In this document: positions 335 through 13,282 of the stretch, one piece after another | How the letters are laid out: each line of letters starts with the position of its first letter | Position numbering within the stretch: the stretch's first letter is position 1 | NCBI GenBank assembly: GCA_049699855.1 | Contig: JBNAWM010000040.1 | Coordinates: forward strand, 1-13,345 | DNA: 13,345 nt | Source of the DNA: Candidatus Cryosericum sp. | GTDB lineage: Bacteria; Caldisericota; Caldisericia; Cryosericales; Cryosericaceae | Direction of reading: 5' to 3' | Position numbers and translations under genes: made by a program | Notes under the pieces: model-generated | Database searches by the model: none | Told to the model about the DNA's origin: nothing | The model's input: the letters and a program-made list of their open reading frames with translations, nothing else

Positions 335-1645
335 CTACTGATCCAGAAAGTCGGTGGGGAAGTCAAGCGCTCGAAGGCCAGCGTTGAACTTTCGTTTCTT
401 GGCCAAAAGTCCCAGAGCGGCTTCGGCAAAACCACCCATGCCTGTCCTCATGTCCTCGTCGTAGTCGGTCTTGGAAACGGGACGCGTACCGTGAGCGAGC
501 AGACTGTAGTTCCGACGCTCCATAGCGTGGCGGACCGGACCTTCCCACTCGGACCAGAGTTTTCCCATACTGGGTTCCAGCGCCGCAAGGAGTTCCCAAC
601 TGTGGAGAAAGCCCAGCGCCGGCTCTACCGCCAGGCTGTCGCGCCATCCGACCGACTTTGGAACCTGGTCAGGCGACACTCTGCCGGCATCCACCTTAAA
701 CATCGTCCACAACCCTGTCTGGGCCACCAGCTCACAGGCACGGTAGTTCCGGCCAATCGCGTCATCAAACTGTCCTCGCCCAGCCCTGCGCTGTCCATTG
801 GCCAGGATGTCCGACGCGAGCAGATACCCGGCGTTCGTTTTCCAGACTGGCAGAGGGGTGATATGATCCTCTTCGGTCAACCTGAGAGCTGTCACAATCG
901 ACTTCAGCGTGGCTTTGTAGGATCCGTATACCCCCTGGGTATCTCCCGCATCAAGAAGATCGAAGGCGGTTGCATGCTCAAAGCGGTCCCACGCGTCAAA
1001 TGCCTGGCATACCGTGTACCGATGTACTAAGGCTGCGGTCTTCTCGGAGGCCTGTTCCACATGGGAAAGTTCCAAAGCCGCAGCCGCATAGTCTCGCATG
1101 GCCAGGTAGGCTCTCGCACGGTTGAATGCACGCCGCTGGACAATCTCGCCGATGGGCGCCGTGACTGTGATCCCCATCTGCACTTTCTCCAGCCCCTTGC
1201 GCGATCCCGTCACGAGGACGAGCCGCACGTGTCCATCGTCAAGCGCCGCCGCAGTCAGTCCTGCCGACATGGACTTTGTGCCGCCGGTGTAGTCGGCGAG
1301 GATCTCCGCCTTTGGGTCGGCCTTGCGTATCTGAGCAATGGCATCGAACGACTTGCTGTAGCAGTCATCCAGGTTGTCGGCATCAATATTGAACACGCTC
1401 AGCTTCCACTTCCTTGGCTCAAGCTTGGCCTGAACCGGAATGCTGGGCAGGTCAGCCGGTGCGTTTGGAGGAGTGGTGGAGCTCCTGCAAACGTTCCCTT
1501 TCCCCTGCACCATCACCGCCGAAGCCTGACGCGTGGATTCAGTGGCACCCGAGCAAAGGAACACGACTCTGTCCGGCTTATGCGCCTCGATCGACTGCAC
1601 ATTTGGAACGGGCGAACCTCCTACTGTCAAGACAAGCCACTTCAT
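335..1645 (-). CDS. CARF-HEPN ancillary ribonuclease (TIGR02710 / Csm6-like), 436 aa
   Basis: ATG 1645 has an SD GGGAGGT 6 nt upstream; the ORF-track start at 2005 overlaps the previous gene. CARF motifs are LVLTVGGSP, PDRVVFLCS and ADYTGGTKSMS (D118-K124). The C-terminal part has YRACELVAQ and the HEPN motif RNYSLLAH (R378-X6-H385, nt 491-514). Confidence 0.85.
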   Translation of the reverse strand: MKWLVLTVGGSPVPNVQSIEAHKPDRVVFLCSGATESTRQASAVMVQGKGNVCRSSTTPPNAPADLPSIPVQAKLEPRKWKLSVFNIDADNLDDCYSKSFDAIAQIRKADPKAEILADYTGGTKSMSAGLTAAALDDGHVRLVLVTGSRKGLEKVQMGITVTAPIGEIVQRRAFNRARAYLAMRDYAAAALELSHVEQASEKTAALVHRYTVCQAFDAWDRFEHATAFDLLDAGDTQGVYGSYKATLKSIVTALRLTEEDHITPLPVWKTNAGYLLASDILANGQRRAGRGQFDDAIGRNYRACELVAQTGLWTMFKVDAGRVSPDQVPKSVGWRDSLAVEPALGFLHSWELLAALEPSMGKLWSEWEGPVRHAMERRNYSLLAHGTRPVSKTDYDEDMRTGMGGFAEAALGLLAKKRKFNAGLRALDFPTDFLDQ

Positions 1646-1649
1646 GTCG

Positions 1650-4079
1650 TTACCTCCCGTGTCTGTGGTTTCTGTCGAACTCTTCAAGATATGGCAGGCC
1701 TTGGTCCACTGCGAGGTCAGGTAATGCAAGACCTTTCGGGAGGCAACCTTTCGCTGATCGTTCATTCTCACTGAACCATTTGAATCCTTCGCCTGCCGGC
1801 TTGGGTGGCACACTGCTGGGGTCGTCCATCCTCCGACTCCTCGGATAGTGCGTCGGCAAGCTATCCTTGTATCCCTGGGCCGCCACGACAAACGCCTTGA
1901 TGTACGGCACCTGCTCGAACGCGACTCCGCCCGCCGCAGAAACTGCCTGCTGATATTGCCTGACCAACTCCGCACCCTTGTCCTGCACCACCACTGGCTC
2001 AACACTGGTCAGAGACCTGTAGTAGGCCGCCCAGTCGCTCCCTTTTCCCAACTGGCTGCCGTCCCAATCAATGGCAAGAGCAACACTGCCAAATCCGTAT
2101 GCCTTGCCGCTTCCAAGCTTGAGATACCTGTTGGGTCCCAGCGACAAGATCCAAACCAGGGCACCCAGCTCTACGCTGCTGAGGTTTGTGACATCTATAT
2201 CAAAGTTGAACGCTGTGCCGGGCTTGACCCAGCTCTCGACCGTGCGGTTCTGGGTATCCAACTGCTCCTCGCCATTGAGTCTCGGGCGCCGGTATTCCTG
2301 ATACCATCCAGGCGCTCCGGTTATCTCTGTCTGGGTCCTGTCCTCCGTCGGGTTGTCCCAATACCCTTGTGGCAGGTTCTGGTGGGGGAAGACCTTGCGC
2401 CCACGGAGACCCTTTCCCAGGCTGTATCCGGCATCCTGTTTCTTAATGCCATTGCTCTGGGCTATGCCCTGCTGGTTGGCAGCCACATAGAAACGTCCCT
2501 GTTCTGACTTTGGCTGACCCATGATAGCCAGAGGAAGTCCCGTCAGTTTGCCTTTGGCGAGCTTCATGATGGCATCGCCAGTCTCACACTGGACCGCGCC
2601 TATCCTCAAGTTTCCGCGATAGGCCGATTGTTCTTTGGATCCAGACACACCATCCTTCACCCATCCAAACACCCGGTCGGCCGGGGACAGATGCTTGATG
2701 TCCGAGGCCGGTTTCAGGCTCGCATCCAGCAATTGATCCGGTGATGCGTCCTGCAGGTCCCGAGAGATCATGACCGGGAACAGCCCGGTCAATTTCAGTG
2801 TCTGGCCGCTCCACTCAACTGCCGCGTAACACAGGGCGCCCTCTTTCAGGGTACGCTCCTCTTTCCACTCCCGAATGTGGCGCGAGTACTCACAGCCGTT
2901 GCCCAGCGCAGGTGGACAGACAGCACCGGTGCGGATGTCCCGTTCGTTTGCTTGATAGTAGTTGTCTATGAGATTCTCCCAGCGCTTTTCCTGCTCCTCA
3001 GGCACAAGAAGGCGCATCGGGGCCCCACCGTTGGCGTTGAAGAAAATCCGCTCGTCATGTTTCTTCTTTCCGGGAGGCATATTCTTGCCGGAAATACAAA
3101 CCCAGCCACCTTTAAACTGCTTGACGACTTCCTTGTTGTCTTTCGCCTTGTAGTCGCTAGGGACGACCCGCCAGTAGTCAAATGGCGCGCCCTTGTCGTG
3201 TGGCGTGCTGACAGCCAAGAAGCTCTCGACGTGGTCTCCGTGCTTCCAGCGCGTAATGTTAGTAACATCGTCATGTTCATGGTACATTGGCAGCCAGGCA
3301 GCGTACATGAACGAACCTTTGGGTTCGCCACGGCCGGTTGGGTCAACCTGAGTTGTTCCTGTGTACAGCTCTGCCTCGAGCCTTCCATCCGGGCGTGCGA
3401 CCATGCGTGCTGGGACCATTGCCAGCCCTTGCCTGGCTTCCTGGCGCATCCCTAGGGGAACACCATGATCGGAGAAGACACCCATGCGCGAATTCGTGAC
3501 CGCCTCGTAGGCAGAGCGAAGCATCCCCTTGAGAGAAGTGGGGGCAACTATTGGGCGGCCCGCCGCATCGACACGCATGGGATATTCTTTGTGATCTACA
3601 TCAGGGTCATCAGGCAGGTCCGGGATAAGCAGAGGGGTCTCGGTCGTCATGCGAACGTGCAGGCGGCCCGTCCATTTCTCTGTATCCAGCTTGTCATGAC
3701 GCGTATAGGGGTGGTCCGCCAGATCGGATTGCTCGGGGAGTGCCTGCCGTGGCATGGCCGGGATAAAGTTGTAAGGGTTGTGGTACCGTGCCTCTCTCGC
3801 CCCACGGCTGGCGCTTCCGGTACCAGCGGCAGCCAGTGGCGCTTGCGTCGCGGGCTTTTCCTCACCAGGGCACCAGACACAAATTGGGCGCCCTCCGTCC
3901 AATTCGACCAGCACGTCAAGATTGCCTGACTGAACAAACGCGGCCACTTGCTTGCTCCTCGTGACTTTTGCCTCAAGGGCATTGGGTGAGCCCAGCGTCC
4001 CCTTCTTGCTGGTCCAAGAGATGTACAGGCCTCCCTTGTCCTTGCGGTAAGTGACAATACCCTTCACTGGATCACTCAT
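1650..4079 (-). CDS. cas7: Cas7-group RAMP with large insertion (TIGR03986-like, type III-D Cas7-insertion), 809 aa
   Basis: ATG 4079 has an SD GAGGTG. Motifs are HNPYNFIP, TETPLLIPD, PTSLKGMLRSAYEAVTNS, LSPADRVFGWV, LRGRKVFPHQ, F-x-FDIDVTNLSSVELGAL and the G-rich loop LGSGKAYGFG. It follows csx19. Confidence 0.88.
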   Translation of the reverse strand: MSDPVKGIVTYRKDKGGLYISWTSKKGTLGSPNALEAKVTRSKQVAAFVQSGNLDVLVELDGGRPICVWCPGEEKPATQAPLAAAGTGSASRGAREARYHNPYNFIPAMPRQALPEQSDLADHPYTRHDKLDTEKWTGRLHVRMTTETPLLIPDLPDDPDVDHKEYPMRVDAAGRPIVAPTSLKGMLRSAYEAVTNSRMGVFSDHGVPLGMRQEARQGLAMVPARMVARPDGRLEAELYTGTTQVDPTGRGEPKGSFMYAAWLPMYHEHDDVTNITRWKHGDHVESFLAVSTPHDKGAPFDYWRVVPSDYKAKDNKEVVKQFKGGWVCISGKNMPPGKKKHDERIFFNANGGAPMRLLVPEEQEKRWENLIDNYYQANERDIRTGAVCPPALGNGCEYSRHIREWKEERTLKEGALCYAAVEWSGQTLKLTGLFPVMISRDLQDASPDQLLDASLKPASDIKHLSPADRVFGWVKDGVSGSKEQSAYRGNLRIGAVQCETGDAIMKLAKGKLTGLPLAIMGQPKSEQGRFYVAANQQGIAQSNGIKKQDAGYSLGKGLRGRKVFPHQNLPQGYWDNPTEDRTQTEITGAPGWYQEYRRPRLNGEEQLDTQNRTVESWVKPGTAFNFDIDVTNLSSVELGALVWILSLGPNRYLKLGSGKAYGFGSVALAIDWDGSQLGKGSDWAAYYRSLTSVEPVVVQDKGAELVRQYQQAVSAAGGVAFEQVPYIKAFVVAAQGYKDSLPTHYPRSRRMDDPSSVPPKPAGEGFKWFSENERSAKGCLPKGLALPDLAVDQGLPYLEEFDRNHRHGR

Positions 4080-4668
4080 ACTTCACCTCGCCTGCAACCA
4101 GCTCGAGCAATCGTTCCTCGGCGACTTCCACATTGCCATCCTTGCCATCGTCGGCGATGTCATACTCCCGAGCCCGCAAAGACGCATGATGGTGCGCGGC
4201 CATGCCTGCGATGGGAATGTCTATTGCCCCGATCCGCGGTTCCGCCAGACGGCTCCAGCCTTGGCCTATCTCATCGCCGGTTCCGGTCCCCCACAGCAGA
4301 TAGCAAATATCTTTGCTGGAGACGGCAGACCTCAGCCTGCTGGGCTCTGACCAGCCTGCTGGCAGACGTGTCAGCACCGATTCGACCTCCGTCAGCACAA
4401 CAGCAGGCCCCCTGCCCTCTGCCTGATGCAGCCAGCGGAACTCAGCAGACGGCGAAAAGACGCGCATCTCAAAGACAGGCTCTCCTTCCGGCCACGGATG
4501 GCCCGGCGAAAAACTCAGTTCACCGTTCACTCCGACACGCCCGAACACACAGTCGGATGGTCCGTAAACAAGTACAGTCGCTTCACCCCCGAAGATGCCC
4601 GCAACCTCCTTCATTGCCACATCGACCGGCACATCCTCTCGTCTGGCACTCATCAGAACATTACCCAT
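4072..4668 (-). CDS. csx19: Csx19, type III-D specific subunit, about 198 aa
   Basis: SD GGGAGG is followed by ATGATG (4671/4668), overlapping the upstream TGA; start 4671 is an alternative. Motifs are VFEMRVFSPSAEFRW, YLLWGT, LAEPRIG, REY-x-I and C-terminal EERL. Its position between the two cas7 genes is typical of III-D. Confidence 0.8.
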   Translation of the reverse strand: MGNVLMSARREDVPVDVAMKEVAGIFGGEATVLVYGPSDCVFGRVGVNGELSFSPGHPWPEGEPVFEMRVFSPSAEFRWLHQAEGRGPAVVLTEVESVLTRLPAGWSEPSRLRSAVSSKDICYLLWGTGTGDEIGQGWSRLAEPRIGAIDIPIAGMAAHHHASLRAREYDIADDGKDGNVEVAEERLLELVAGEVKYE

Positions 4669-6161
4669 CATACACCTCCCTCGTGATCGACCACGGCCTT
4701 CTGCCACGCCTTTCCCAGCTCTTCAAGCAGGCCCTGCGGCAGATGCCCGATGTCACCCTTCTCCAGCGTCAGTGCTTCCTTCATCCAATCGACTCCGGCG
4801 GGAACAAGGGTGATGCTGTCAACCGTGATGTCCCCCATCCCCCGGTTCGTGGCAAAGCCAAGCGGCACCCTGCCAGCAGCCAGGTCTCTCAGCGTCAACA
4901 GCAGCAGCGCCATCATCTGCTTCTGCTTCTCGGGTTTGTCCTCCAAACGCAGGAGATCCAGCGTGAAGTGCATGGGCTCCCACTTCAAGTCTCGCGGTTC
5001 CATCTGAGTGAAGAGCTTCTTGTCAGAGGCTCCACCCAGCCATCGGTCTATCGCCACATGAGCGGCGGTCGACAGCTTCTTGTCCAAGGCAGAGTCCGCA
5101 AGAGCGCTCCGTACGTCAGCTTCTTCAATGGCCGCCTCCACCTGCGCCCAGGCATCGCGCTTGACAGCATCGTCCTTGGCATAACAATCGTCGACGCTCA
5201 GCATGCCCATGCCCCCGACTTCCGGGTCTTTGTCCTTGTCCGCCCGCGAACTGCCAAACAGCATTGCCACAAGCTTGCCGGCTTCATGGCTGGCTTTGTC
5301 TGGTGATCCACCTGCGACCGTGTTGACGATGAGTGTGGCGCGGGAACGCAGAACGCCCTTCAGAGAGCTGCCGGGCACGGTGAGGGCAACCTGGCCTCCA
5401 TCCACCCCGCTCACCAGCGGAAGACTGTCGATGGCAATGCCGCTCACTCCCGACTTGACCATCATGGGCGCTGTCGTGTGCCATTGAATGGAGATGTCGA
5501 TGCGCCGACTGGCCGTTTCTGCTCCTGATGCCAGGCTTTCCAGCAGGATTTCGCTGTCGTGTCCACGCAGATGATCAATCATGCCCTGGCGCGTATCAAG
5601 GATCGCACAGCGAAGTTTGTCGTCTTTGAGAACAACCTTGCCCATGCCACGCGTCCGCTGGGAGCCAAGGCGAATGCTGGCGTGCTGCAGTGCCTCCGTC
5701 AGCATCTTCACAGCCGCCTCTGCCCTGGCAACGTCTTCACCACGCGGTACGCCAAGAGAACAGGTGAACTGCACGCTGGTCCCTCGCGGCAGGATGGTCG
5801 TATTATACTTGATGCCGCTGCTTGCTGTGCCGGTGCCTGCATCGATACCAACGCCGTCGCGGACTTCAGAAACGACGTCTCCTTCGACGACAGCATCTTC
5901 AACCGTAAACAGGCTTGCCAGCCCCTTGTCGCCATCCTGAAATCCCCACAGTGCATGAATCTCGTCTTCTCCACCTGAAGACATCCACTGACGGAGTGCC
6001 CCGGCCAGACTTGTTCCTGGAATGTAGTACCTTCCCTGTCCATCGACCGCGAGTGGCATGTCACTCATCGGATCACCCGCATCCACTCCTCCAATGTGCA
6101 GGGGAGTCTCGGCGACAAGACGGCCTGTCAGGGTGTAGACTCTGCTCATGTTACGCGACAT
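4668..6161 (-). CDS. cas7: Cas7-Cas7 tandem fusion (Csm3-group RAMP), 497 aa
   Basis: ATG 6161 has an SD AAGGAGG 9 nt upstream. Domain 1 has ETPLHIGG, YYIPGTSLAGALR, LWG, VRDGVGID and LGSQRTRGMG. Domain 2 has TAPMMVKSG, VPGSSLKGVLRS, LFG, HVAIDRWLGG and LGFATNRGMG. Confidence 0.88.
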   Translation of the reverse strand: MSRNMSRVYTLTGRLVAETPLHIGGVDAGDPMSDMPLAVDGQGRYYIPGTSLAGALRQWMSSGGEDEIHALWGFQDGDKGLASLFTVEDAVVEGDVVSEVRDGVGIDAGTGTASSGIKYNTTILPRGTSVQFTCSLGVPRGEDVARAEAAVKMLTEALQHASIRLGSQRTRGMGKVVLKDDKLRCAILDTRQGMIDHLRGHDSEILLESLASGAETASRRIDISIQWHTTAPMMVKSGVSGIAIDSLPLVSGVDGGQVALTVPGSSLKGVLRSRATLIVNTVAGGSPDKASHEAGKLVAMLFGSSRADKDKDPEVGGMGMLSVDDCYAKDDAVKRDAWAQVEAAIEEADVRSALADSALDKKLSTAAHVAIDRWLGGASDKKLFTQMEPRDLKWEPMHFTLDLLRLEDKPEKQKQMMALLLLTLRDLAAGRVPLGFATNRGMGDITVDSITLVPAGVDWMKEALTLEKGDIGHLPQGLLEELGKAWQKAVVDHEGGV

Positions 6162-8565
6162 GTTCTTGTCCCTCCTTGCTCTGCTTTGCGCTCTTTTCCC
6201 GGTCGCGCTTCTCAAACCGAATACACTGGTCCAACAGCGTCCGCACAGCCTCGACCCAGACCTTGGGGTCCTGATCCATCTTGGACGTGGAAGCGAATTC
6301 TCTCTGCCACGTTCCCTTTGTAAACAGCAGGTCCCAGACGGCACTCTGGTCTGCAAACAACTCCGTCAGCCTCTTCTTGGCGTCCTTTCCCCACTTTTCC
6401 GTGAACAGGTCCTTGTTCTTGCCATGCTTGCCTGTCTCGTGATTGATCCATGCCATGACCACGGCGTCGCCTGGCTTCTTGATGACACCGGCCATCGTGC
6501 GCAGAGTGCCCAGTTGGCTGTCGGTCGGCTGCTTCTGGGTAATACCAAGAGCCGGCCGGCGCTTTTCGGCATCCATTCCCACATCTGTGGCCGCTTTGCG
6601 CAATTCTGCGGTCATAAGTGTGGATTCAAGACTGCGCCAGTACTCTTGTTCCTCATCCGTCATGTGTGACGAACCACCGTTCTCCAATGGCCGGTCTCCA
6701 CTTTTCACCTCAGCTGATTCAACATCCTTCTCGTCAAGAAGGGAGCTGTTGAACAAAATCTGTCCATAGCCCTCGGGCCGGCGTTCACCAATGCCTTCCT
6801 GCTGAAGGCGTCCCAGAGCGGACGCATACCGCTGTTCGTCCTGCACTGAGGCAACCTTGTAAATGAAGCATGTTCCAGCGCAAAGTCCAACGAGGCTGGG
6901 GCGGGGCAATCCCCACCCGGTCTGCCATGAATCTGTTCGACGCCGGCGACCCACATAGTTCATCGGAGATCCATCTTCCTCAGGTTGATACATGGTTGTC
7001 AGTTCGCAGCCCAGTTCCTTTTCCAGAACCGCGTGAAGCACTTCGGGCGTTCCATCCAGCCCCAGGCGATCATTGCGCAAAAGGAGATCAGATGTCATCC
7101 ACACAGTCAGCACATCAGACCGCACAGCGGGGTGTTCCTCCACTGCGGGCCGCACGTCCTGGATGCGCACGACGCCATAGTCATCCTTCTTGGACGATCC
7201 GATCCTGAGCAGGGTCCCAACCAACTTCCTCTCCCACCCCGCGGGCATCGCAGTATCTGCTGCCACACGGATGGTTGCCCTGAAGGTCTGCCCGGGACGG
7301 ATGGCCATATAGGTGAACACACCACCGGCATTATCGTCTGGACGCTGGCGGGCATCATCGATCGTGTTGTGCATGCGTGCCGTCTGCTCGACGCTCTTGC
7401 TGGCCAGCCGCTTGCCATCCCAGTGCACATATCCGCCGCGCATGCCCTTGTACTGCCGGCCCTCTTTCAATCGCTCTCTCAGGGTATTCACCAGACGCGC
7501 CTGCGTGCCAGCCACGGGGGCTTTCTCCCGAAAGAATGCCCATGGGCATGGAAGTCCCTGCTGTCCATTAACATCGATGGTTGCGTTGGAAACAAGCACC
7601 CTGCTGCCTGCGATGGCAGTTGCCGCATCAATTCCAGAGTCGTTCAGCGCATGCGACACCGCCGGCAGCAAATAGGTTCCTGGCAGGTAGTCCAGCGACT
7701 CGACCACGTTCCCTTTCTTGGCAGATCTTGCAATGACAGGCGTCTCCGGCGCCAACGTCACCTCAAACGCCGACCACCCTGCATCGCCGCCAGACGCGTG
7801 CAGAACGGGAGAAGCAAACTTGTCTGTATCTGCGGGAGGAGATGGAATCTTGTCTGCGTAGGTGGCCAGCCACTCGACCTCGCTCTTCTCATCGATGCCC
7901 TGTCCCGCCATGCTTACGTTCACCCTGCCACTGCCGCGGCGGCGCTTGCCCCCGATCCGCTCTGTCAAGCGGCACCCAGCGGCCAGCAGGGCAAACACGC
8001 AGTGCTGCTGCTCGGAACTCAGGCCAGTGACATCAATCTGGCCATCGGCGCGCAGAGCAATTCCACCGCGAACCATCTCCACCATGCGAAGACAGTGATC
8101 CTCCGATTGGCCCGTCTTGGCATTCAGCATGACGCCCGGCTTGACGAACGTCAGTGACTGCCTCAGAGCATCATTCATCTCCTTTGCCTGCCCTGTTGGA
8201 CCGACACCTGTCAGCCTTGAGCAAATTCCGTCAGGCAGAGAAGCCGGACGAATGGATAGCGCGGCACCTCTTGGATGGTCAAATGGCGGAGTGTCTTCGA
8301 TGGACGGCTGGCTGCCAAAAATATACGTCACCCAGGCAGACCAGGGCCCTTCTGTACTGCCGTTGTCCAGGCCGAAGGCGGTCTGTTCGCATGCATCGCG
8401 CAGGATGCCGGTCAGCGTCTTGGCTGGGACGTATGGAAGATCCTGTTCGTCCCGCGCAACCAACGCATCGATGTCGCCTGGGCGGCCGTACCCTGAACCC
8501 ACGTGCCAGTCCGACAACATATTCAGACTGAATACGACTGTCCGCATATCACTGAGCTTGGTCAT
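6151..8565 (-). CDS. csx10: Cas7-Cas5-Cas11 fusion (Csx10-like), 804 aa
   Basis: ATG 8565 has an SD-like GAAGGGGG. The N-terminal Cas7 has SDWHVGSG, LPYVPAKTLTGILRDA and IGGKRRRGSG. The central Cas5/Csx10 region has SLDYLPGTYLL, IGSSKKDDYG, WQTGWGLPRPS and GIGERRPEGYG. A helical tail of about 170 aa containing SQLGTLR is interpreted as Cas11. Confidence 0.8.
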   Translation of the reverse strand: MTKLSDMRTVVFSLNMLSDWHVGSGYGRPGDIDALVARDEQDLPYVPAKTLTGILRDACEQTAFGLDNGSTEGPWSAWVTYIFGSQPSIEDTPPFDHPRGAALSIRPASLPDGICSRLTGVGPTGQAKEMNDALRQSLTFVKPGVMLNAKTGQSEDHCLRMVEMVRGGIALRADGQIDVTGLSSEQQHCVFALLAAGCRLTERIGGKRRRGSGRVNVSMAGQGIDEKSEVEWLATYADKIPSPPADTDKFASPVLHASGGDAGWSAFEVTLAPETPVIARSAKKGNVVESLDYLPGTYLLPAVSHALNDSGIDAATAIAGSRVLVSNATIDVNGQQGLPCPWAFFREKAPVAGTQARLVNTLRERLKEGRQYKGMRGGYVHWDGKRLASKSVEQTARMHNTIDDARQRPDDNAGGVFTYMAIRPGQTFRATIRVAADTAMPAGWERKLVGTLLRIGSSKKDDYGVVRIQDVRPAVEEHPAVRSDVLTVWMTSDLLLRNDRLGLDGTPEVLHAVLEKELGCELTTMYQPEEDGSPMNYVGRRRRTDSWQTGWGLPRPSLVGLCAGTCFIYKVASVQDEQRYASALGRLQQEGIGERRPEGYGQILFNSSLLDEKDVESAEVKSGDRPLENGGSSHMTDEEQEYWRSLESTLMTAELRKAATDVGMDAEKRRPALGITQKQPTDSQLGTLRTMAGVIKKPGDAVVMAWINHETGKHGKNKDLFTEKWGKDAKKRLTELFADQSAVWDLLFTKGTWQREFASTSKMDQDPKVWVEAVRTLLDQCIRFEKRDREKSAKQSKEGQEHVA

Positions 8566-10300
8566 TGCTGGCCCCCTTCGTCTTGTTGTCGTTTTCTGTG
8601 GGCAGGAAGGCCTCCGCCTCCATGGCATCCAGAAGCAGTGTCACATACGTGTCCTTGCGATCAAGCGCAAACAGGGTGTGCTCGCCCTCCGTCGTCGGCT
8701 TTTCCAACAGCTTGCTTATCTTTGCTTCCGCATAGCGATGTTCAATCAGCTGAAGAGCAGCATCGGCGGTACCCCTTCCCTTGAAGAGACTTGCACGCAG
8801 TTCGTGAATCTGGCTGTTGGGCAGGATTCGCCTGCCATCCTCGTCCTTCTCCCGCAAAACATCTGCGCGCATCGTCAGACGACCCCAGGCATGCAGGCCC
8901 AGCCATGCCTTCTGCTCCGTCTCCAGAGGAGCCTGCTCAAAATTGGCGCTGGGTGTTATCACATAGGGCGTCCCATACAGGAGCGTCACCCCGTCGTCCA
9001 CCCTCAGTTTGCGGCGAATCTCATCCAGTTCGGTTGCACTGCTGTCGTGCAGCACGTGAAAGTCCACTGTCGAGCAGGGCCAGATACCGCCGTTCGGGTG
9101 GCGCATCACCTCTTTGACCACATTCTTGGCGCGCGATGCCAGCTCCTCTGCCAGGTTGTAGGCCGCGTAGAAAGGATAATGAGACTTGACGATGGCGATG
9201 CCGGCACCTGCCGACAGCCAGGCGTTCGCCATGTCACCATGCGTCATGCGTGCCGCAACTGCCTTTGTGTCTTCATCGCAAGCAGTCTCGACCTCAAACT
9301 GCTCCAGGTACTTTTTTACAAAGGACATGACCAGCTGGGCGTCGCACGCGACGGTCATGTCGTCTCCGCCCAAAACGAGCGGCCGAAGAGGAAGCACGTT
9401 TCTTGGGCCCATCTTGTCCTGCGGCACCTTGGCTGCTATGTCAACAATACTGTTCACGGCTTCCTTGAACGCCTTGTGCGTGCATACATCGACAGCGCAG
9501 GAGAACCTGCGCAGCGTATCGACATATTTCCTGTTGTCGACGGGGATTGGGGACCCGCAGTAGTTTTCAAAGTTCATAAAGACCTGTCCCAGCCCGTTGC
9601 CATCGGCATGGACCACGGCCATCCAGTCTGCTTTGTCGAGATTGTAGGCAAATGTCCACCCTTCCGGTGCCCATTGCCTTGAGACTGCGTCATGGACGTC
9701 CTTCGCCGGCTCCCGCTTGGCGACCGTCTGCAGAGAAACCGGCACGCCGTCCTTGTCCACACCGGCCGCCGGCATGCCACTGCTGGCACACTCAGCCACA
9801 AACGGCAGACGCAGGAAGCGCGACTCAGGCCCGTGCATGCTGGTTCGCAGTTCCTCATACCGGCGATACGCTTTCTTCAGGCCCTTGGCTACACTGCCCG
9901 GCTCATTCCACTCGAACCCTGCTACCGCACCCTTCACATCGATACCGGGGGCCTCGTCCAGGGCCTTCTGCGTCACATGCTGGACAATGGCTTTGGCGGC
10001 TTTCTCATCCTTGACCAGCAGAATCGCCTTGCCGGAAATAGCCTCGACAACCTCGACCATGGCTCCTTCCGTTTCGATGTGGGGATTCAGCGCGGGATTA
10101 ATCAACACTTTCTTCTGTTCGACAGGGTCGTCCCTGTACAAGCTCTGTCGGCCAGTCTGCCTGGCAACGGCTTCGAGCACCCACTCCGTTCCGGCGCGCC
10201 GTGTCAGTTCCGACGCCCCCACGTTCTCCTTCAACTTGTTCGTGGCAAACACATACGCTTGATTGCCCGATGTTTCCAAGACGACGAGATAGCACTCCAC
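8549..10300 (-). CDS. cas10: Cas10, type III-D large subunit, no HD domain, intact Palm GGDD, 583 aa
   Basis: GTG start at 10300 has an SD AAAGGAGG. The protein begins directly with the Palm1-type motif ETSGNQAYVFATNKLKENVGASEL. It also has VVHADGNGLG, PLVLGGDDMTV (nt 9359-9370), SAGAGIAIVKSHYPF and AEELASRAK. Confidence 0.93.
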   Translation of the reverse strand: MECYLVVLETSGNQAYVFATNKLKENVGASELTRRAGTEWVLEAVARQTGRQSLYRDDPVEQKKVLINPALNPHIETEGAMVEVVEAISGKAILLVKDEKAAKAIVQHVTQKALDEAPGIDVKGAVAGFEWNEPGSVAKGLKKAYRRYEELRTSMHGPESRFLRLPFVAECASSGMPAAGVDKDGVPVSLQTVAKREPAKDVHDAVSRQWAPEGWTFAYNLDKADWMAVVHADGNGLGQVFMNFENYCGSPIPVDNRKYVDTLRRFSCAVDVCTHKAFKEAVNSIVDIAAKVPQDKMGPRNVLPLRPLVLGGDDMTVACDAQLVMSFVKKYLEQFEVETACDEDTKAVAARMTHGDMANAWLSAGAGIAIVKSHYPFYAAYNLAEELASRAKNVVKEVMRHPNGGIWPCSTVDFHVLHDSSATELDEIRRKLRVDDGVTLLYGTPYVITPSANFEQAPLETEQKAWLGLHAWGRLTMRADVLREKDEDGRRILPNSQIHELRASLFKGRGTADAALQLIEHRYAEAKISKLLEKPTTEGEHTLFALDRKDTYVTLLLDAMEAEAFLPTENDNKTKGASNDQAQ

Positions 10301-10441: not shown

Positions 10442-10459
10442 CAAACATATCAATGTTTG
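10442..10459. promoter_or_regulatory. Palindromic candidate operator overlapping the -10 box
   Basis: CAAACAT-ATCA-ATGTTTG is a perfect 7-bp inverted repeat with a 4-nt spacer. Confidence 0.5.
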
Positions 10460-10472
10460 CTTTCTGTGTCAA
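10444..10472 (-). promoter_or_regulatory. sigma70-type promoter for the cas10 operon
   Basis: On the minus strand: TTGACA (10472-10467), a 17-nt spacer ending in TGA, then TATGTT (10449-10444). This is a perfect -35, optimal spacing and an extended TGn -10. Confidence 0.75.
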
Positions 10473-10557: not shown

Positions 10558-10585
10558 GTGACACAACCTGCGATTGCGCTATTAT
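10558..10585 (+). promoter_or_regulatory. Candidate sigma70 promoter for RT-cas1-cas2
   Basis: GTGACA (10558-10563), 16 nt, then TATTAT (10580-10585), 45 nt upstream of ATG 10631. Confidence 0.45.
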
Positions 10586-10630
10586 GCAGGAGAGCGGAAG
10601 CCAACACACTGTATAAGCGAAGGAGGCATC

Positions 10631-12988
10631 ATGAGTCTGTACGAACACGTGCTTGATGGACTGAACCTGATGTCCGCATTGCAGGAGGTCATGGCGGCAG
10701 GAAAAGCCGGAGGCATCGACGGCATAACTCTGGCAGACATTCAAAGCAACCAGAACAAATATCTTGGTGATCTCCAGCACCAGCTTGAAGAACGACGCTA
10801 CCGGCCTCAACCCGGCGCCAAGATCGACATTCCAAAACCCGATGGAGAATCCCGGCATATCTCCATCCCAACCATTCAAGACAAGGTCTGCCAGCGAGCA
10901 GTGTTGCAGGTCATCACCCCCATCCTGGATCACCAGTTCTTGCCCTGCAGTTATGCCTATCGTCCGGAAAAAGGCCCCATCCGGGCAGTCAAGCGTGTTG
11001 TCCACGCCCTCAGGAACGAAAAGATGATATGGGTTTGCCTGGCGGATGTCGATGACTTCTTTGACTCTCTGGACATACCTCTGCTCGAGTCGGAACTCCG
11101 CACTGCCTTGGCAGACCGTGACCTGGTGGATCTTATGATGATGTGGGTCCGCATGGGTTCGGTCGACCATGACTGGCGCTGGCATGACCGCTCTTTCGGC
11201 ACGCCGCAGGGAGCCCCGGTCTCCGGTGTGCTCTCCAACCTGTATCTCAACGCGTTTGACAGGACTCTCACGGGACGTGTCGGCTCCTACGTCCGCTACG
11301 CCGACAACCTGGTTGTCATGGAGAAGACTGAGCGCCAGGTGCGCCAGGCGTTTGAGTTCCTCCAACGCACCCTCGACCGCCAGGTGCACCTGAAACTCAA
11401 CCCTGGAACAGTGATCAAGCCAGCACAGGAAGGATTTGAGTTTCTGGGAGTGCTGATCGACCCATCGCGCGTAACGCTGTCTCCCGCCAAGCTCGAAGCC
11501 ATAAAGTCACAGGCGTCCTCCGCTCTCCGGCAAGGCGTGAGTCCTGCCAGTCTGACCGCCCTTGGCGACTTGATGAAGGGGTGGCACAACTACTATGGCG
11601 ATCTTATTGACGAGGCAACCCTGAGCGTCGTGGACAGCCAGGTACTGTCGGCGCTGGGCGCCGCTCTGCAAGACTTGTCATGGAAGTCCCACTACAAGAA
11701 ACTTGAACTCTCGTCGGCACTCGAGCAGCTTCCCTTCGTTTCCGAGGGGGCTCGCCTTAACCGGACGGGGACCGTGCATGGACTCCTGAATCTCCTCCCG
11801 TCTCCCGTAGCCGAACCCCGCATTCCCTCGGCACGCGCACGGGACGCGAGCCAGCCAGCGCCAACTGCCACCTCGTCTGCCGATGCCAAGGCGCCCGTCA
11901 AACCGGCACCCCACTATGATGTGGACCGCGTGGTGGCTCAGCGCAAGCGCGAATATCAGCAGCGGGAACGGGCCAGCTCCGAATTGCTGGTCAGTTCACC
12001 GGGCAGTTTCGTGGGTGTTCGAGACCAAATGATCTGCGTCTCCCACAATCATGTCATCTCCCAGCGCATCCCCCTGCGCGTGGTGCGGCACATCACGATC
12101 GCATCAGCCGGCGTGAGCCTGTCCTCTAATCTCTTGCTCGACTGTTCCACCCAAGGCATCGGCATCGATTTCGTCGACAAGTACAACAACCCCTTCGCCC
12201 GTATGCAGTGGGAAGACGATCCCTCAAGCGCACTTGCGCTCGCTCAGGTGGATGCCCTTCGGGATGGCCGCGCCGGCAGGACCGTCCGTGCAATCGTCGG
12301 CGGCAAAATCAGCAACCAGATCTCGTGCATCCGGTACTTCCTCAAGTCGCGCACCACCAACCAGGAGCTTTCAGCCGAGTGCGACCACCGCTGTGATCTC
12401 ATGGAGAAACTTGCCCAATCCATCTCCACCCTCGAGCAGTACGACACCGACATGACCACCCTTAGAGGAAAACTGCTCTCCATCGAAGGACGGTCTGCCT
12501 CCCTCTACTGGGACTGCGTGAAGGATCTCGTCGAAACCACGTCCGACTTCCCGGGACGGCAGGGCCACGGCAGTACCGACTTGGTCAACTCCCTCTTGAA
12601 CTACGGCTACGGCATTCTGTACAATCGGGTCTGGCAGGCCGTTGCCCAGCAGGGTCTTACAGCCGGCATTGGATTCCTCCATACGGAGCAGAAGGGCAAG
12701 CCCACGCTGGTCTTTGATCTGGTGGAGGAGTTTCGGCAGGAAGCGGTGGACCGTCCCATCATCGCCACCATCACCCGTCACCTGCCCCTCGCCCTGGACA
12801 ACGGGCGCCTGACCGATGAGACCCGCAAACTGGCCGCCGCGCGCGTTCTGGAACGCCTTGAAACGCCCGTGCGCTATCATTCGACCTCCACCCCGCTCGC
12901 CGAGGTCATCGTCTCCCAAGTCCGCCTGCTTCGTTACGTCCTGCTTGGCGCTGCCCCTGCCTATCATCCGTACCACGCCAAATGGTGA
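10631..12988 (+). CDS. cas1: Reverse transcriptase-Cas1 fusion, 785 aa
   Basis: ATG 10631 follows SD AAGGAGG. Group II intron-like RT blocks are AGGIDG, YRPQP, IPKPDGESRHISIPTIQDKVCQ, SYAYRP, ADVDDFFD, GTPQGAPVSGVLSNLYL, YVRYADN, GFEFLG and thumb GWHNYY. The C-terminal Cas1 has VSSPGSFVG, EGRSASLYW, VNSLLNYGYGILY, GFLH and LVFDLVEEFR. Confidence 0.93.
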   Translation: MSLYEHVLDGLNLMSALQEVMAAGKAGGIDGITLADIQSNQNKYLGDLQHQLEERRYRPQPGAKIDIPKPDGESRHISIPTIQDKVCQRAVLQVITPILDHQFLPCSYAYRPEKGPIRAVKRVVHALRNEKMIWVCLADVDDFFDSLDIPLLESELRTALADRDLVDLMMMWVRMGSVDHDWRWHDRSFGTPQGAPVSGVLSNLYLNAFDRTLTGRVGSYVRYADNLVVMEKTERQVRQAFEFLQRTLDRQVHLKLNPGTVIKPAQEGFEFLGVLIDPSRVTLSPAKLEAIKSQASSALRQGVSPASLTALGDLMKGWHNYYGDLIDEATLSVVDSQVLSALGAALQDLSWKSHYKKLELSSALEQLPFVSEGARLNRTGTVHGLLNLLPSPVAEPRIPSARARDASQPAPTATSSADAKAPVKPAPHYDVDRVVAQRKREYQQRERASSELLVSSPGSFVGVRDQMICVSHNHVISQRIPLRVVRHITIASAGVSLSSNLLLDCSTQGIGIDFVDKYNNPFARMQWEDDPSSALALAQVDALRDGRAGRTVRAIVGGKISNQISCIRYFLKSRTTNQELSAECDHRCDLMEKLAQSISTLEQYDTDMTTLRGKLLSIEGRSASLYWDCVKDLVETTSDFPGRQGHGSTDLVNSLLNYGYGILYNRVWQAVAQQGLTAGIGFLHTEQKGKPTLVFDLVEEFRQEAVDRPIIATITRHLPLALDNGRLTDETRKLAAARVLERLETPVRYHSTSTPLAEVIVSQVRLLRYVLLGAAPAYHPYHAKW

Positions 12989-12994
12989 CCCTCC

Positions 12995-13282
12995 ATGAAA
13001 TCCACCTTTCTCGTCGTCGCATACGATATCGTCAGCGACCGCCGGCGCCTGCGCCTCTCACGCTACCTCAGCACCTATGGCACCCGCATCAACCTGTCGG
13101 TCTTCGAGTGCAGCGTTCCCGCATCCGAGGTCGCCGCATTCAAGAAGAAGGTTTCCTCCTTCGCCCATCTCTCCACCGACACGATCGTCTTCTATACCCT
13201 CTGTCTCAACTGTATCGCCTCCATCGACCGAAGGGGACTGGGGGCACGCCAGGCCGATCCTGGCATCGTCACCTCTCTTTAG
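12995..13282 (+). CDS. cas2: CRISPR-associated endoribonuclease Cas2, 95 aa
   Basis: It starts 6 nt after RT-cas1. Motifs are VVAYDIVSDRRR, YGTRINLSVFEC, DTIVFYTLC-x2-C, and the size is typical of Cas2. Confidence 0.93.
   Translation: MKSTFLVVAYDIVSDRRRLRLSRYLSTYGTRINLSVFECSVPASEVAAFKKKVSSFAHLSTDTIVFYTLCLNCIASIDRRGLGARQADPGIVTSL

Follow-up and report, generated by a model that had tools for sequence, protein, structure and literature searches.

The window analysed here, the whole 13,345-nt stretch of DNA, is a complete contig from Candidatus Cryosericum sp. (JBNAWM010000040.1, assembly GCA_049699855.1) that stops 63 nt after cas2, so that the CRISPR array of the locus is unassembled. It carries a reverse transcriptase (RT)-Cas1 fusion gene followed by cas2, both pointing away from a divergent operon of type III-D-like effector genes (cas10, RAMP genes, csx19, TIGR03986 and a CARF-HEPN gene). 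The features are as follows:

335..1636, minus strand: CARF-HEPN ancillary gene (TIGR02710), start not fixed
1650..8565, minus strand: type III-D-like RAMP genes, namely Csx10-like, Csx7-like, csx19 and TIGR03986
8549..10300, minus strand: cas10 (Pfam Cas10-Cmr2_palm2; GGDD in the palm), which opens the divergent effector operon
10444-10472, minus strand: divergent promoter match (consensus match only)
10558-10585, plus strand: sigma-70-like promoter match upstream of RT-cas1 (consensus match only)
10620-10626, plus strand: AAGGAGG ribosome-binding site preceding RT-cas1 (consensus match only)
10631..12988, plus strand: RT-Cas1 fusion gene, 785 aa from its ATG, without internal stop; RT and thumb at about 10631-11665, disordered linker at 11804-11896, Cas1 at 11984-12985
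11045..11047, plus strand: D139, the first catalytic aspartate, in RT-3 (LADVDDFFD); conserved as D in 263 of the 265 homologs, the other 2 having gaps
11204..11239, plus strand: RT-4 motif PQGAPVSGVLSN, with a clade-specific Gly199 (11225-11227) replacing Pro
11297..11308, plus strand: YADN motif of RT-5, residues 223-226, read from the sequence and aligned with the YADD of solved group II intron RTs
12995..13282, plus strand: cas2 (Pfam CRISPR_Cas2, E 8e-15; TIGR01573)

The RT-Cas1 and cas2 genes are linked to type III effector genes on the opposite strand, as in a type III adaptation module. Within the operon, the csx19 and TIGR03986 models score above their cut-offs and the Csx10 and Csx7 models match below cut-off. 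The promoter scan gave 2 matches for 0.3 expected. At the other end of the window, four imperfect 24-nt tandem repeats (4-123) lie within an ORF that runs off the contig start.

No array of at least three repeats was found in the assembled source genome, which also lacks a match to the repeat of L001, the homologous locus of a same-genus genome (G054) in which 20 repeats lie about 500 nt after cas2. A two-copy repeat ending contig C62 was considered as the array of the locus and rejected, since it belongs to a second cas1 locus; this contig (L038, 1478-1577) bears a second cas1 and, where it ends, the pair of CRISPR-like repeat copies, which together constitute a second, RT-less adaptation module. 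A tblastn search of the source genome for another RT returned none, the only other match being this second cas1. Of 92 other genomes of the phylum, G054 is the only one with a full-length RT-Cas1 match.

Several observations concern neighbouring genes. cas6 stands directly before RT-cas1 in L001 and L041 and is not in the window; contig C135 of the source genome (L200, 1069-2236) holds a cas6 homolog cut at the contig end, at 57% to the L001 cas6 and preceded by a 135-aa ORF. Upstream of cas6-RT-cas1, L001 contains two paralogous genes of ~700 aa (441-2597 and 6477-8567), of which the second matches Cas_APE2256 and HD-CE, with a ClpA/B-like ATPase between them; type III effector genes were not recognised in that upstream flank. 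In L041 (4928-5963, 11272-11744) and L101 (7168-14776), YADN modules lie between two arrays whose repeats are related but different, and the upstream array of L041 is degenerate.

An RT of the group II intron-like type sits N-terminal to Cas1 in a single frame (Pfam; fold matches 6AR1 and 4N06), with RVT_1 at residues 67-274 and Cas_Cas1 at residues 452-717. The AlphaFold model shows a normal fold (mean pLDDT 93.2), and its best fold matches are 6AR1 (GsI-IIC intron RT, top) and 7KFU. The group II intron RT/maturase model TIGR04416 scores 239.8 bits, below its cut-off of 300, and a Pfam search for the PF08388 (GIIM) domain found it absent from this protein, which is fused to Cas1 instead. The codons TAC GCC GAC AAC at 11297-11308 encode Y223, A224, D225 (11303-11305) and N226 (11306-11308). 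An earlier sequence-only reading had reported this motif within an uninterrupted frame, and both points are borne out. It had further described every other block as intact, which holds for D139 and LADVDDFFD, PQG (residues 192-194), FLG (residues 271-273) and the Cas1 metal ligands E619, H684 and E699, all present, and does not hold for RT-4, which departs (PQGAPVSG, with Gly199).

We collected 265 RT-Cas1 homologs, made up of the best 120 matches at the 90% level and 145 new representatives from a 50% library; they are best matches to one query and not a census of all RT-Cas1. The motif is xxDD in 210 and xxDN in 55 of them, with no third residue type at the last position. More specifically, we counted YADD 195 times, YADN 45, YSDN 8, YSDD 5, YGDD 4 and FADD 4, and YGDN, FADN, YVDD and FGDD once each. 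The best 120 matches at the 90% level divide into 15 with YADN and 105 with YADD, and at the 50% level N is found in 41 of 150 representatives. RT-Cas1 fusions are canonically recognised by a (Y/F)xDD motif, in place of which the window protein has YADN; since 55 of the 265 homologs are xxDN, (Y/F)xDD is not strictly defining for the family. Carriers of Asn include one Nitrospirota genome (L121), whose close relative from Thermodesulfovibrionales (L120) has YADD, and one Flavobacteriaceae genome (L159). We examined 82 DNA sources and obtained the motif in 79, with YADN in 8; the Asn codon of these eight loci is AAC in four and AAT in four, and CRISPR arrays adjoin six of them, L001 included.

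The clade of the window protein has seven members, down to 44% identity, and six carry N. The sequence-only reading had offered a recent single G>A knockout as one possibility and had proposed counting YADN against YADD in the nearest homologs. This count shows that the Asn is not private, and a recent knockout is refuted by its presence in 55 of 265 homologs, by the deep all-N clades and by six of seven members of its own clade. An error of base calling at 11306 is likewise very unlikely, because N is found in five of the six nearest relatives, which were assembled elsewhere, and is written AAC or AAT across loci. The YADD of the single nearest relative, P0002, is what a private change or assembly error at base 11306 would lead one to expect; with N in five of the six other clade members and at the clade root by parsimony, and with the same codon in the same-genus genome G054, we give this explanation almost no weight.

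The Asn is absent from our intron RT controls. D occupies the position (YADD) in all 120 proteins closely related to one intron RT, a control shallow enough (71-100% identity) that a more diverse one was added. In this second set, 96 diverse intron-type RTs selected out of 120 matches by PF08388 and at least 82% coverage, neither aspartate varies; its first row resembles a truncated RT-Cas1. A plasmid search yielded, among the matches listed, intron RTs only.

D and N exchanged repeatedly. On a FastTree phylogeny of 194 of the 265 proteins, in which deep nodes are weak, at least 17 D/N changes are required compared with 42-55 for shuffled labels; this tree keeps all 55 N proteins, omits as redundant 71 D proteins among the best 120 matches and was built with column 226 removed. 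The Cas1 counterpart of this tree gives 19, compared with 40-53 for shuffled labels. A 261-row FastTree phylogeny (4 gappy rows dropped), its deep nodes likewise weak, again gives 17 changes, and in RT tree length a single all-N clade of 20 members amounts to 17.7 substitutions per site. Within the clade of the window protein, P0002 (75% identity, known from one contig) has YADD, with the codon GAC, and is nested inside the N clade as sister to the window protein with full support on both the RT and the Cas1 domain. Trees that group the N members without P0002 are rejected (AU p 1.8e-5 for RT and 1.8e-4 for Cas1, on 28 and 27 rows, respectively). The simplest history, by parsimony, would have N at the clade root followed by a return to D in P0002. 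The existence of close D/N pairs (P0001/P0002 at 75%; L120/L121; L078/L105 at 81% in RT) suggests that D and N exchange easily.

These repeated origins, together with the long life of the all-N clades and the lack of N in the intron RT controls, could mean that N226 was selected for a changed chemistry, for example short tailing or Mn-gated synthesis, that sets the rate at which RNA rather than DNA spacers are taken up. The two-aspartate site would then be a repeatedly evolved tuning device for slow, Mn-favoured short or tailing synthesis, switched at least 17 times. We assume that the last position of the GDN motif of viral polymerases is equivalent to position 226. All polymerases of the Mononegavirales are reported to have GDN fixed as motif C, and GDN to have arisen repeatedly elsewhere (10.1101/2022.10.18.512700), which favours tuning in that these working enzymes have a natural Asn at the last position of palm motif C, with repeated origins, although they are RNA-dependent RNA polymerases and the window enzyme is an RT. 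The terminal transferase activity of RT-Cas1, reported to be strongly raised by Mn (PMC11014452), points the same way. Selection of this kind nevertheless seems unlikely to us: an alignment search for residues that track N across clades found none of general effect, the best enrichments being partial and clade-bound, and the close pairs suggest easy exchange between codons that are one transition apart.

The remainder of the RT site is conserved. All 55 N proteins retain K69, R75, D84, D139, F144, G194, D225 and G273, which we take to represent the fingers, the metal ligands, the steric gate and the primer grip. Of the columns conserved in D representatives, 91% (RT) and 90% (Cas1) are conserved in N representatives as well. 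For the 6 N clades the ratio of RT to Cas1 branch length is 1.12, compared with 1.08 for the 16 D clades (p 0.083 for the whole RT); for the core RT it is 0.86 in N clades versus 0.78 in D clades (Mann-Whitney p 0.033, with only 6 N clades).

The window's own clade stands out in this comparison. Its RT/Cas1 ratios, 2.77 and 2.08 in two pairs, are the highest of the 22 clades, and Gly199 replaces the Pro of the RT-4 SPxLxN in all seven members, D and N alike, while 109 of 109 D-type representatives have the Pro. Given these top ratios, the higher core-RT ratio and the Gly for Pro, some relaxation of the RT in this clade is real. By simple counting, and at a dS between 0.7 and 1.9, RT dN/dS within the clade is 0.21, 0.11 and 0.18, far below 1 and indicative of purifying selection, and in two pairs it exceeds that of Cas1 (0.21 versus 0.11 and 0.11 versus 0.05); five D pairs range from 0.07 to 0.19, and all of these values are rough because dS, at 0.7-2.1 overall, is near saturation. 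The earlier impression of a gene that does not look decayed therefore stands as far as dN/dS (0.11-0.21) and the kept residues are concerned, with the qualification that the RT evolves about twice as fast as Cas1. N226 and Gly199 might be first steps in a slow loss of RNA capture confined to this clade, the RT being kept mainly as a folded N-terminus of Cas1, and the RT/Cas1 ratios of 2.1-2.8 and the twofold dN/dS in two pairs would agree with this. We find it highly improbable, since dN/dS is far below 1, D pairs have similar RT values and 7 of 7 members, down to 44% identity, retain D139, D225, K69, R75 and F144. As judged from these sequence comparisons, the RT is mostly not decaying.

The same data bear on the possibility, also raised by the sequence-only reading, of a non-catalytic scaffold, in which the RT would bind RNA or metal-dNTP and gate Cas1 via an RT helix, with spacers coming from DNA only. 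The RT and Cas1 sites are described as allosterically coupled, with crosstalk (PMC8102632), retroviral RTs are said to lose function through this substitution (PMC2148107), and an approximately twofold relaxation of the own-clade RT would be in keeping with such a role. A scaffold would not account for two catalytic aspartates and dNTP-binding residues that all 55 N proteins have kept unchanged along long branches, for a position 226 that never drifts beyond D and N, for the apparent N-to-D return in the own clade or for the reported activity of an FGDN protein (PMC11662929), and we judge it improbable.

The explanation that we consider probable is that of a slower, two-aspartate RT that would still be adequate for spacer-length DNA synthesis. 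We take the metal roles of the catalytic residues from HIV-1 RT structures. D139 and D225 would continue to bind the two catalytic metals, and N226 would stand in for the third carboxylate with its side-chain carbonyl in the same position and the charge lost. Judging from Ty1 D211N, the lost charge should slow catalysis, and Mn2+ may be the favoured metal. Little synthesis would be required, a tail of a few nucleotides on the RNA protospacer plus a spacer-length cDNA of about 35 nucleotides, and a slower form could therefore be tolerated, making D and N a near-neutral exchange while all other residues are purged. Intron mobility, in contrast, requires kilobases of cDNA. This difference between short and kilobase synthesis may explain why N is tolerated in RT-Cas1 and absent from the intron controls. 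In this reading the window protein would capture spacers from RNA. The strand bias of spacers would not reveal such an origin, as type III selection imposes the same bias on spacers from any template.

Published work is consistent with a slower, still active enzyme. In Ty1, D211N, which has Asn at the second YXDD aspartate as in the window RT, retains polymerase activity with a kpol 223-fold lower and a preference for Mn, as the sequence-only reading had noted in outline, while D211E is dead (PMC2148107); the D-or-N-only pattern agrees with Ty1, in which Asn is functional at this position and Glu is not. Ty1 D211N is a laboratory mutant of an LTR retrotransposon and abolishes transposition in vivo, whereas the change in RT-Cas1 is natural and recurrent. 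A short 3' dA tail is reported to be enough for ligation of an RNA protospacer (PMC11014452). The one experimental precedent is the type VI-A RT-Cas1 of Eubacteriaceae bacterium CHKCI004, a natural fusion with an FGDN motif; the tested RT-Cas1 proteins were all said to be RT-active (poly(rA)/oligo(dT), 25 mM Mg), and an FGAA mutant, with both residues removed, lowered acquisition six-fold (PMC11662929). In the same report spacer acquisition by the FGDN system was far below that of the YADD system of V. vulnificus, and RNA-derived spacers are described only for a YADD protein; the available portion of its text carries no remark on the Asn and no comparison of N with D. The CHKCI004 protein is likened to the III-D-like, YADN window protein by the Asn at the last motif position. 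Attenuation is thus the best-supported part of what the sequence-only reading had suggested, on account of the residues kept in 55 of 55 N proteins, the active FGDN protein and Ty1; for the altered chemistry that it named beside it, no compensating residue was found to track N across clades.

The window protein resembles other characterised fusions in part. The (Cas6-)RT-Cas1 proteins of Marinomonas mediterranea, Vibrio vulnificus and Thiomicrospira belong to type III modules reported to take up RNA spacers (PMC11014452, PMC8102632, PMC6821258); Thiomicrospira RT-Cas1 has FADD, whereas the window protein has YADN and no Cas6 fusion. 7KFU/7KFT are matched by both sequence and fold, at a low identity (16% in the fold alignment). 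Fusions of RT clade 2 (type VI-B 'Pm' from P. muris, type III from Bacteroides; PMC6013744, PMC11662929) are described with the same RT-Cas1 plus cas2 architecture, and the characterised member has YADD in contrast to YADN here. Bacteroidota proteins are among the matches to the window RT-Cas1 at about 31-33% identity, and the names of the matches give a lead that it belongs to RT clade 2 (clades 2/11 of Toro et al.).

The consulted parts of PMC5513706, PMC6013744 and PMC6753606 hold no mention of an Asn motif, nor those of PMC5850383 of GDN, and in the literature searched FGDN, YADN, YSDN or YGDN occurs together with Cas1 only in PMC11662929. Our literature search, of incomplete coverage, turned up no paper that treats xxDN as recurrent in RT-Cas1 and none on natural Asn variants of the RT motif, though a remark on the Asn in PMC11662929 or elsewhere is possible. 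YADN in plant mitochondrial maturases, a possible parallel, found no confirmation in this search and is not used.

By textbook accounts, YxDD does not vary among reverse transcriptases. A YxDN protein would normally be annotated as dead, and with about a fifth of the sampled RT-Cas1 family carrying xxDN under strong constraint, such RTs should not be called inactive on the motif. Near-matched natural D/N pairs would allow direct tests of what the third catalytic aspartate contributes and of how much polymerase activity RNA spacer capture requires. The recurrence of the Asn is also relevant when RT-Cas1 enzymes are selected for RNA recording. A merely neutral exchange would be of moderate interest; tuning, if true, would be a widespread natural exception to the YxDD rule that controls how often RNA enters the CRISPR array.

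Two further variations were seen among the homologs. At alignment column 272, the middle of FLG, 15 of the 55 N proteins have Cys in place of Leu (FCG), a change that is absent from the 109 D representatives and probably marks one deep clade. In the P0021 cluster (P0284-P0296, YADN), several members are broken after the motif into an RT of 239 aa and a thumb-Cas1 part of 586 aa, next to intact members of 828 aa, reflecting either a frameshift in a subpopulation or an assembly artefact; short RT frames also occur in the YADD loci L105 and L107.
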